A stretch of DNA of 20,803 bases from the IMG/VR virus record IMGVR_UViG_2690316131_000021; one strand, given 5' to 3'. The notes beneath the pieces are model-generated. The model worked only from the letters and a program-made list of their open reading frames with translations, had not been told where the DNA came from and searched no databases. The DNA comes from a virus. Its lineage: Duplodnaviria > Heunggongvirae > Uroviricota > Caudoviricetes. Shown in pieces: positions 8,223-10,379 of this stretch (within the stretch, counting starts at the first letter, position 1; each line of letters opens with the position of its first letter). The translations under genes were made by a program, and so were the position numbers.

Positions 8223-8248
8223 ATGCCCTCCATAGTAACCATGAAACA

Positions 8249-8277
8249 ATAATACGATATGTACTTTTGGAATGCAA
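8249..8277 (-). promoter_or_regulatory. pR promoter (-35 TTGCAT, 17-nt spacer, -10 TATTAT) with operator-like AGTAC motif in the spacer
   Basis: Read on the - strand in the cro-cI intergenic region. Confidence 0.55.
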
Positions 8278-8334
8278 TCGAAAAAATACATCTTGTGCAT
8301 GGATGGTTTTAGTACGGAGCGTAATAATGAGGGT

Positions 8335-8994
8335 ATGAAAATGAAATGGTATGAACTGGCTAGATCCAGAATGAAAGAACTCAGCATAACTCAAGAGAAG
8401 TTAGCTGAAGAGCTTGGTATGACGCAGGGTGGAATTGGTCACTGGTTGCGCGGATCTCGTCATCCATCTCTTGACGAGATTGGTGTGGTGTTTAAGTACC
8501 TTGGTATTAATAACGTCTCATTCAACCACGACGGTACATTTTCACCTGTTGGCGAATACTCATCAGCCCCCGTTAAAAAACAATATGAGTACCCTGTTTT
8601 TTCTCATGTTCAGGCCGGGATGTTCTCGTCTGAGCTTAGAACCTTTACCAAAGGTGATGCGGAGAGATGGGTAAGCACAACCAAAAAAGCCAGTGATTCT
8701 GCATTTTGGCTTGAGGTTGAAGGTAACTCAATGACCGCACCAACAGGTTCCAAACCCAGTTTTCCTGACGGGATGTTAATTCTTGTTGACCCTGAGCAGG
8801 CTGTTGAGCCAGGTGATTTCTGCATAGCCAGACTTGGGGGTGATGAGTTTACCTTCAAGAAACTGATCAGGGATAGCGGTCAGGTGTTTCTACAGCCACT
8901 AAACCCACAATACCCAATGATCCCATGCAATGAGAGTTGTTCCGTTGTGGGGAAAGTTATCGCTAGTCAGTGGCCTGAAGAGACGTTTGGGTGA
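8335..8994 (+). CDS. cI: CI-type prophage repressor; non-lambda N-terminal domain, lambda-identical C-terminal domain
   Basis: From [15 protein letters not shown] to the end it matches lambda CI as recalled; start is ATG 8335 or 8341 (ORF track begins 8272). Confidence 0.85.
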
Positions 8995-9064
8995 TGAATG
9001 GCTAAATGTCTCCTAATAAAAACAGCAATCATTTGAAATTATTAATAATTATAGAGGCTTAGTC

Positions 9065-10063
9065 TTGGAAATCAGCACGGCGGTTATTCATTCCGAAGAA
9101 GATGCTTTGCGTTTTGTTGAGATGTACATCGCTGGGCAAGATCTTCCTGATGGAATATCATTTGAAGGGTGGCCTAACTTAACCTTCCGTCTTACTGGTG
9201 ACAAATTTCATGGCAGTTTGACTCCTTCTGTCATGAAGGGTTTTGTTGAAATGCAGGCCCAAATAAACCGAGCTTATGCATTGTTAAAGTACGGAGTTCC
9301 TGACCCAAGAAAGCTTTCAAAAGAAGAGAAGGAAGCTATCGAAATTCAGGTGAATGTTGAGAATGGCTCGTCCTTGATAGAAGTTAATATGGATGGGTTC
9401 ATGGGTGAGGTTATACAAACTGCGGTGAGTAAAGTGGGCCCTCAAGAGATCGTTATTACAGTTTTAGGGGTAGCTCTTATATGGGGCGGCGTCGTCCTAT
9501 TCAAAAAATATCTAGAAGACCGCAAAGAGATTCGCATGGCAGAAGTAAAAAGCGAGTCTGAGCGTGAACACCTTGCGACCATGCGCTTCATGTCTGAGCA
9601 GGAAACAAAACGAAGTGAATTATTGACTCAGATTATTAGCGAAAAACCCAAGCTAGACAACATGGAAAGACTTGCTCATGACGCAAAAACCGACATAGTT
9701 AAATCATTTGTCAAGGCTGATACAGCTCAGATTGATGGCGTTGTATTGGATGCAGATCTATCCAAAACCCTCACTACAAATGCAAGGCGGAAATCAATGG
9801 AGATCCGCCTTGATGGAAATTATCGCATTGAAAAGGTTGACTCCACTGATCCAGAGAGCTTCAAAGTGCAAGTGAGAAATGTTGACTCCGATCTAAGAAT
9901 ATCGTGCATAGTACAAGATGTTTTTCTCGACGCATCCGAGCATAAAAAAGCTCTTCAGCAAGCTGAGTGGGATAGAAAACCAGTTCATTTGTCAATCAAC
10001 GCAAAAGAACTAGATGGTGAAATAAAGTCCGCGATAATACTTTATGTCAAAGAGATAACATAA
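9065..10063 (+). CDS. Unknown 332-aa protein with one predicted transmembrane segment, in the rexAB position
   Basis: AT-rich ORF directly after cI, same strand, TTG start with AGAGG SD; hydrophobic stretch IVITVLGVALIWGGVVLF; followed by a terminator. Confidence 0.6.
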   Translation: MEISTAVIHSEEDALRFVEMYIAGQDLPDGISFEGWPNLTFRLTGDKFHGSLTPSVMKGFVEMQAQINRAYALLKYGVPDPRKLSKEEKEAIEIQVNVENGSSLIEVNMDGFMGEVIQTAVSKVGPQEIVITVLGVALIWGGVVLFKKYLEDRKEIRMAEVKSESEREHLATMRFMSEQETKRSELLTQIISEKPKLDNMERLAHDAKTDIVKSFVKADTAQIDGVVLDADLSKTLTTNARRKSMEIRLDGNYRIEKVDSTDPESFKVQVRNVDSDLRISCIVQDVFLDASEHKKALQQAEWDRKPVHLSINAKELDGEIKSAIILYVKEIT

Positions 10064-10070
10064 TCCTCAT

Positions 10071-10096
10071 CCCGGCCTCAGCGCCGGGTTTTCTTT
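10071..10096 (+). terminator. Rho-independent terminator ending the cI operon (t_imm position)
   Basis: CCCGGC-ctcagc-GCCGGG followed by TTTTCTTT. Confidence 0.6.
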
Positions 10097-10282
10097 GCCT
10101 CACGATCGCCCCACCTAAAAACACATAACCAATTGTATTTGTTGAAAAATAAATAGATACAACTCACTAAACATCGCAATTCAGATCTCTCGATCACCTC
10201 CCAAGCCACTCAACCCTGCAAAATATAACCCCATAAAATACAAAACGTTATAAAAAACCAATCATATTTAGAACATTTTGTA

Positions 10283-10311
10283 TTGACTCAATAAAGTACA
10301 CATCGTACTAT
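10283..10311 (+). promoter_or_regulatory. pL promoter (-35 TTGACT, 17-nt spacer, -10 TACTAT) with operator-like AGTAC-N5-GTACT in the spacer
   Basis: Near-consensus sigma70 elements about 250 nt upstream of N. Confidence 0.6.
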
Positions 10312-10379
10312 TTAGCCATCAGCGGGATGCACCACTCACCAGGGCGGTGAATATACAACGATTCGAATATGAATCTACG

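Follow-up and report, generated by a model that had tools for sequence, protein, structure and literature searches.

Six dyads as the probable operator set of a lambdoid immunity region of the VT2-Sakai type

Introduction

The virus record IMGVR_UViG_2690316131_000021 of IMG/VR (Caudoviricetes) contains an early region of lambdoid type whose map orientation is inverted, and the question raised by its divergent cI and cro genes is where the operators of this genetic switch lie and to which immunity type they belong. The whole stretch of 20,803 nucleotides, referred to here as the window, was analyzed. A first-pass annotation, made from the sequence alone, had noted that the divergent early promoters pL and pR share a 19-nucleotide block with two differences, that a related dyad lies near the start of cI, and that these three dyads would be the primary operators of a non-lambda repressor. 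Its range, 8223-10320, is that of the whole immunity region, and the actual features occupy 8249-8328 and 10237-10311. Here we describe six dyads in these two intervals, which are very probably the operators of this immunity type, with OR1-OR3 located between cro and cI and OL3-OL1 at pL.

Results

Six dyads in two intergenic regions

The two 19-mers, AAAGTACACATCGTACTAT at 10293-10311 on the plus strand and AAAGTACATATCGTATTAT, which is the reverse complement of 8249-8267, do differ at only 2 of 19 positions. This likeness (17/19) was never reached in 300 shuffles of both intergenic regions, in which the maximum was 16, seen twice. Both blocks hold a 15-bp dyad that sits in a promoter spacer and overlaps the -10 element by 4 bp, the promoter being called by the scan for pL and inferred for pR. 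The third dyad, AGTAC-GGAGC-GTAAT, lies 16 bp before the cI ATG (8341), within the putative pRM promoter. By position, the three dyads would be OL1, OR1, and OR3 of a lambdoid switch, and homologous sites are annotated in the phage sequence AP005153, which agrees with their proposed role as primary operators. The set itself had been undercounted: a motif scan of both intergenic regions, one of the checks suggested at the time, revealed the overlooked additional copies OR2, OL2, and OL3 (Table 1). With these three weaker copies, the total is six, and the layout is therefore the classical lambdoid one of three plus three sites.

The dyad symmetry of the sites, another point to be verified, proved significant relative to the window background, where 0.14% of 15-mers have 5/5 symmetric pairs and 1.5% have 4/5. 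Judging from the six sequences, the operator of this immunity type is a dyad of 15-17 bp, (T/A)-A(G/A)TAC-N5-GTA(C/T)T-(A/T). Its inner AC, which reads GT on the opposite arm, is kept in every one of the twelve half-sites. From centre to centre, the OR sites are 34 and 26 bp apart and the OL sites 33 and 25 bp.

The significance of the sites lies in their positional clustering alone and not in the abundance of the motif. An a priori consensus, AGTAC-N5-GTACT, corresponding to the one perfect dyad, was searched over the 20.8-kb window, and the two stretches of ~120 bp were tested as regulatory regions against composition-matched shuffles (n = 5000). With two mismatches or fewer, the consensus is not over-represented window-wide (6 found vs 4.2 expected), but 4 of the 6 matches are inside the regulatory regions (hypergeometric p = 1.5e-7; 0/5000 shuffles). 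With three mismatches or fewer, 6 of the 49 window matches are inside them (p = 1e-5; 3/5000 shuffles). Three stray matches were rejected as operators and are considered background: those at 9910-9924 (within ORF332, an open reading frame (ORF) between cI and pL) and 10125-10139 have identical copies in a lambda-immunity prophage of Escherichia coli ECO20, and that at 16928-16942 is inside a coding ORF (16330-17052). We also discarded the count obtained with the degenerate pattern ARWACN5GTDNW (18 matches vs 3.3 expected), because this pattern was designed after the sites were seen, and it is unused as evidence.

Half-sites are constant among natural variants

The variation of the sites was followed in 80 IMG/VR loci with a cI 97-100% identical and in two phage records, giving 27 distinct OR and 50 distinct OL sequences. 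Polymorphic columns (minor count of at least 2) amount to 2/60 in the half-sites vs 74/189 in the other non-coding positions (Fisher p = 6e-9, a value that overstates independence because the variants are closely related). While the half-sites stay constant, variation is free in the central pentamers and in the spacers between operators: the centre of OL1 is ACATC, ATATC, AAATC, or AAATT, the centres of OR2 and OL2 change with their half-sites kept, and in the 50 OL variants OL3 likewise keeps its half-sites as its centre and flanking spacer vary. Constant half-sites around a variable centre are the pattern predicted for the operator of a dimeric helix-turn-helix (HTH) protein.

The OR2-OR3 distance is fixed at 26 bp and the OL2-OL1 distance at 25 bp among these variants. 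The OR1-OR2 distance is 32 bp in 4 loci, 33 bp in 67, 34 bp in 13 (including the window), and 35 bp in 2, with the differences arising from the length of an A-run (window 8277-8285, from the pR -35 to OR2) and from a 2-bp indel. The cro-cI-pL region as a whole matched 203 phage records, none of them over its full length, because they have another gene between cI and pL.

A known immunity group

Comparison with known lambdoid immunity types, which had also been proposed as a check, gave a match with the operators of AP005153 and VT2-Sakai/PST1. AP005153, a Shiga toxin 1 (Stx1) converting phage, encodes a CI that is 97% identical to that of the window, with residues 1-44 the same except for S15G, and a Cro that is 96% identical, with an identical HTH. 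Six 17-bp “putative operator” features are annotated at homologous positions of this phage (Table 1), in addition to a putative pR, pRM, and pL. However, its N is HK97-like, whereas the window encodes another N type of ~127 aa.

In the group comprising VT2-Sakai (Sp5), AP005153, AP005154 (Stx2 phage II), Nil2, 2851, and PST1, the half-sites of OR1, OR2, OR3, OL1, and OL2 are identical to those of the window, and the OR2-OR3 (26 bp) and OL (33/25 bp) spacings are equal. The window nevertheless differs from the group in several respects: the intergenic DNA is only ~90% identical, the central pentamers differ in 6/6 sites, the inner half-site of OL3 is GTTAT in the window vs GTTGT, OR1 and OR2 are 34 bp apart in the window vs 32 bp because of a 2-bp indel, and another gene occupies the space between cI and pL (ORF332, phrog_6191, in the window). 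The window has a CI and a Cro with the same HTH as the group and six sites at homologous positions. On these sequence grounds, it very probably carries a lambdoid prophage immunity region of the VT2-Sakai/Stx1phi/Stx2phi-II/Nil2 type, and the six dyads are a close variant of the putative operator set already annotated in this common immunity group.

Yin et al. (2015) gave the same six sites for the PST1 Stx2a phages (PMC4587872 Table S5), with a reference to Fattah et al. (2000) and the remark that they are the “same as” those of E. coli O157:H7 Sakai. The sites that this table lists as OR1-OR3 are those at pL, by N, and its OL1-OL3 lie in the gap that separates cro from cI; judged by the gene positions, the two sets of labels seem to be interchanged. 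No paper was returned when full texts were searched for the operator string AGTACATATCGTAC. The operators of 933W and BAA2326, whose repressors are the subject of the “hair-trigger” paper, belong to other immunity types and were set aside, as was the “bully phage” preprint, which deals with a different Cro and operator.

A natural exchange of operators in E. coli ECO20

The prophage of E. coli ECO20 carries a lambda-type OR and a cI that is lambda’s throughout, so its repressor has the lambda DNA-binding domain. Its flanks are nearly identical to those of the window, in the C-terminal domain of cI, ORF332, the terminator, and the N leader up to ~10422, where the alignment ends. Only window ~10193-10316 (~125 bp containing OL1-OL3 and pL) is replaced, by the lambda OL. 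The OL segment is thus exchanged along with the N-terminal domain of the repressor, so that operator module and DNA-binding domain move together. Lambda-type operator sites are absent from the window, and its OR and OL are wholly unlike those of ECO20 despite the near-identical flanks; neither the lambda cI N-terminal domain nor lambda operators, which together define lambda immunity, are found in the window. Relative to ECO20, the boundaries of the immunity cassette can also be placed: similarity begins at cI codon ~82 (window 8584) and ends at ~10422, and the sole break between these points is the ~125-bp OL/pL island.

The same dyad adjoins chromosomal regulators in Pseudomonas

A scan of one genome per species yielded 77 Pseudomonas cI/LexA-like genes (HTH_3 + Peptidase_S24), encoding proteins with an N-terminal domain 50-60% identical and the recognition helix SQGGIGHW. 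The dyad A(G/A)TAC-N5-GTA(T/G/A)T was found in 77/77 of these loci, with its centre 82-83 bp before the start codon and at ~30-fold the background density. It takes the form of 40 distinct sequences, whose differences fall mainly in the central pentamer. A second site, xxxAC-N5-GTGxx, is exactly 33 bp off, which is the modal OR1-OR2 spacing in the phages. More loosely defined sites (xxxAC-N5-GTxxx) occur at offsets 0 (76/77), +33 (77/77), and +64 (48/77), for example at 3300-3500 of locus L086.

We trained a symmetrized weight matrix on the Pseudomonas sites alone and scored the window with it, using 200 shuffles as the control. The top three scores in the window were those of OR1 (23.1 bits), OL1 (15.6), and OR3 (10.4), and OR2 held rank 6; the top score of a shuffle was 8.0 on average, with a maximum of 15.0. 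These regulators of the Pseudomonas fluorescens group have in common with the phage immunity type the kind of N-terminal domain, the recognition helix, the dyad, and the modal spacing of 33 bp. However, at the one locus examined (L086), the flanking genes are metabolic and not prophage genes, and the regulator gene is divergent from a DUF6124 gene and not from a Cro-like HTH gene.

Repressor, Cro, and comparison with other lambdoid switches

The description of the repressor as non-lambda holds for its DNA-binding domain but not for residues 82-217, which show near identity with residues 101-236 of lambda cI (structures 3bdn and 8gmu of the lambda repressor). The N-terminal domain has only remote similarity to the lambda N-terminal domain structures (E = 0.005-0.03), and the repressor is therefore a natural hybrid in which a non-lambda DNA-binding domain is joined to the cleavage and oligomerization domain of lambda. 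Its Peptidase_S24 match (E = 9e-29) predicts a LexA-type self-cleaving C-terminal domain. The recognition helices of CI (TQGGIGHW) and Cro (TQGAIGHW) are nearly the same, in two proteins that are 35% identical overall, as would be expected if both compete for one set of sites.

The architecture of the lambda switch is present in the window: cI and cro are divergent, with three sites in the short gap between them (8251-8325, at the putative pR and pRM), and three more sites are found at pL, upstream of the N antiterminator gene. As in lambda, O1 lies over the lytic promoters, O2 at ~-43 of pRM, and O3 in pRM. The operator sequence, however, is unrelated. Lambda operators are TATCACCGC..GGTGATA 17-mers with centre-to-centre spacings of about 24/23 (OR) and 24/20 (OL), whereas the centres are spaced by 34/26 (OR) and 25/33 (OL) in the window, where OR2 does not overlap the -35 of pR. 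The 434 and P22 systems resemble the window in having an all-alpha HTH_3 Cro and an HTH_3 repressor N-terminal domain with one recognition helix, as well as six dyads with conserved half-sites around a non-contacted variable centre, and the Cro of the window weakly matches the P22 C2 N-terminal domain (PDB, E = 0.002). Sequence similarity is marginal, however, and the half-sites differ in sequence and length, as the 434 sites are ACAA-N6-TTGT (14 bp) and the P22 sites are 18 bp long.

Organization of the immunity region

The features of the region are listed in Table 1. The putative pR has the same geometry as pL, and the homologous position of AP005153 is annotated as “putative major rightward promoter”; the pRM proposed here is the counterpart of its “putative maintenance promoter for CI”. 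OR2 abuts the -35 of this pRM, and the start predicted near 8335 puts the centre of OR2 at about -43. Two in-frame ATGs, at 8335 and 8341, are both invariant in the 27 OR variants, and the upstream one (6 nt before the annotated start) coincides with the predicted pRM start, which suggests that the cI message may be leaderless, as in lambda. On longer transcripts, a GAGGG (8329-8333) could provide the second ATG with a Shine-Dalgarno sequence. The hairpin downstream of ORF332 is kept in Stx1phi, Nil2, and ECO20.

Table 1 Operators, promoters, and genes of the window, with the operators annotated in AP005153
Feature	Position	Strand	Description	Annotated operator in AP005153 (positions in the fetched locus)
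cII	7865-7569	-	From ORF list and Pfam	
cro	8007-8222	-	71 aa; HTH_3 (Pfam E = 1e-11); recognition helix TQGAIGHW	
pR (putative)	8249-8277	-	-35 TTGCAT (8277-8272), 17-bp spacer, -10 TATTAT (8254-8249)	
OR1	8251-8265 (17-mer 8250-8266)		AATAC-GATAT-GTACT; 4/5 symmetric pairs; minus strand reads AGTAC-ATATC-GTATT	1762-1778
OR2	8285-8299		AATAC-ATCTT-GTGCA; 3 mismatches to consensus	1794-1810
pRM (putative)	8300-8328	+	-35 TGGATG (8300-8305), 17-bp spacer, -10 AATAAT (8323-8328)	
OR3	8311-8325		AGTAC-GGAGC-GTAAT; 4/5 symmetric pairs; in pRM spacer, overlaps -10	1820-1836
cI repressor	8341-8994	+	217 aa; HTH_3 N-terminal domain and Peptidase_S24 C-terminal domain (Pfam)	
ORF332	9065-10063	+	332 aa; between cI and pL	
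Terminator-like hairpin	10071-10088	+	Terminator scan; 3′ of ORF332, end of cI operon	
OL3	10237-10251		AATAC-AAAAC-GTTAT; 3 mismatches; 3/5 symmetric pairs	3991-4007
OL2	10270-10284		AGAAC-ATTTT-GTATT; 2 mismatches; overlaps pL -35 by 2 bp	4024-4040
pL	10283-10311	+	TTGACT, 17-bp spacer, TACTAT (-10 at 10306-10311); called by promoter scan	
OL1	10295-10309		AGTAC-ACATC-GTACT; perfect 5+5 dyad, 5/5 symmetric pairs	4049-4065
N	10560-10943	+	Pfam N_peptide; downstream of pL	

Discussion

The six dyads of this immunity region exist, cluster, are conserved, and co-segregate with the DNA-binding domain of the repressor, all of which the analysis shows; binding, the order of affinities, activation, and cooperativity we infer. 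In the mechanism that we propose, CI dimers would contact the half-sites through the helix TQGGIGHW, and Cro dimers, with the helix TQGAIGHW, would occupy the same sites. CI bound to OR1 and OL1, between the -35 and -10 elements, would keep RNA polymerase off pR and pL. On OR2, whose centre is near -43 of pRM, CI would be placed for the activation of pRM, and lambda cI activates its pRM from OR2 at the corresponding position. The filling of OR3 by Cro or by an excess of CI would then turn pRM off. As the C-terminal domain of CI is essentially that of lambda, RecA-stimulated self-cleavage and a pairwise or looping cooperativity as in lambda can be expected.

Other explanations of the shared sequences have to be weighed. 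One could argue that the 19-mer reflects similar promoter cores at pL and pR, through duplication or convergence and without any role for a repressor, since both promoters have their spacer and -10 within the block. Promoter constraint does contribute, as the conserved outer half-site shares 4 bp with the -10. Such a constraint hardly explains, however, why the same dyad is found in pRM and at OL3 and OR2, where there is no -10 or -35 of pL or pR, or why the promoter-distal half-site within the 17-bp spacer is invariant when the five central bases are variable; we know of no sequence requirement in a 17-bp promoter spacer. The recurrence of the dyad upstream of the Pseudomonas homologs, which have the same type of recognition helix, and its exchange together with the repressor N-terminal domain in ECO20 also argue against this explanation, which we find very improbable. 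Chance likeness of two AT-rich intergenic regions deserves practically no credence. The window-wide motif count (6 vs 4.2 expected) and the stray copies at 9910 and 16928 are what one would expect from chance, but the shuffles of the 19-mer (0/300 at 17/19 identity) and the clustering statistics (p ~1e-7, 0/5000 shuffles) already refute it, and conservation and co-segregation point the same way, with the strays at 9910 and 10125 being present in the lambda-immunity prophage as well.

A footprint in a divergent promoter region does not by itself tell which protein binds, and the sites could be those of one regulator (e.g., Cro alone) or of some other phage or host protein, with CI recognizing another sequence. 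This appears very unlikely in view of the nearly identical recognition helices of CI and Cro. In addition, the Pseudomonas dyad adjoins a cI-type gene (HTH_3 + Peptidase_S24), the divergent gene at L086 being that of a DUF6124 protein, and the variant alignments contain no further repeated motif conserved in both OR and OL. We therefore favor the reading of the six dyads as operators of both CI and Cro.

Several observations weigh against this assignment to various degrees. OR2, OL2, and OL3 are individually weak (2-3/5 symmetric pairs and 2-3 mismatches to the consensus), and neither OL2 nor OL3 is picked up by the Pseudomonas matrix, which fits weaker, degenerate sites. Because OR1, OL1, and OR3 overlap -10 elements, part of the conserved footprint could be promoter constraint, and the close relationship of the variants was mentioned above. 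The consensus promoter scan called neither pR nor pRM, both of which were placed by position; pR fell below the threshold of the scan because its -35 is weak (3/6 match). In the searchable literature, we located no experiment on binding, footprints, or reporters that used the cognate repressor of this immunity type. The sole electrophoretic mobility shift assay located was performed with lambda CI on the VT2-Sakai sites and gave micromolar apparent dissociation constants, ~10-25-fold higher than those for lambda OR1 and OL1 (PMC10742460).

The finding is correct but ordinary, because the same six sites are already annotated as putative operators in Stx phages of the VT2-Sakai group. The immunity type is common, and the Stx2a prophage of O157:H7 Sakai belongs to it. 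Matches to parts of the region occur in 1570/5426 complete E. coli genomes, a figure that overstates the frequency of the immunity type because the query includes the lambda-type cI C-terminal domain and conserved flanks. Knowing the operators could allow homo-immune prophages to be predicted and could aid the design of reporters or a repressor-based control of Stx phage induction.

Two points are of wider interest, namely the non-lambda spacing despite a lambda C-terminal domain and the fact that the chromosomal Pseudomonas regulators retain the helix and the dyad as well as the spacing of 33 bp. We can only speculate, with more doubt than conviction, that (S/T)QGGIGHW, A(G/A)TAC-N5-GTA(C/T)T, and an O1-O2 spacing of ~33 bp might form an ancient module common to enterobacterial lambdoid phages and to a chromosomal, apparently non-prophage regulator in at least 77 species of the P. 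fluorescens group, and that the phage geometry (OR1-OR2 32-35 bp, OR2-OR3 26, OL1-OL2 25, and OR2 clear of the pR -35) may make the lambda-type C-terminal domain pair sites in a manner unlike lambda. If this were true, the altered pairing would change the stability of the switch in Stx phages.

Finally, ORF332 takes the place that rexAB has in lambda. It is a member of phrog_6191 (unknown function) and contains a hydrophobic stretch, IVITVLGVALIWGGVVLF; searches of Pfam (one sub-threshold match), NCBIfam, and PADLOC returned nothing significant. The same gene follows the lambda-immunity cI in E. coli ECO20 (1982-2980 of the fetched locus), and other ORFs are in this position in Stx1phi. ORF332 is a candidate for a lysogen-expressed moron, perhaps an exclusion gene. 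Beyond it, the ~90 bp between the terminator and OL3 (10100-10192) are almost identical in the window, Stx1phi, Nil2, and ECO20, a stretch that is conserved whatever the immunity type.

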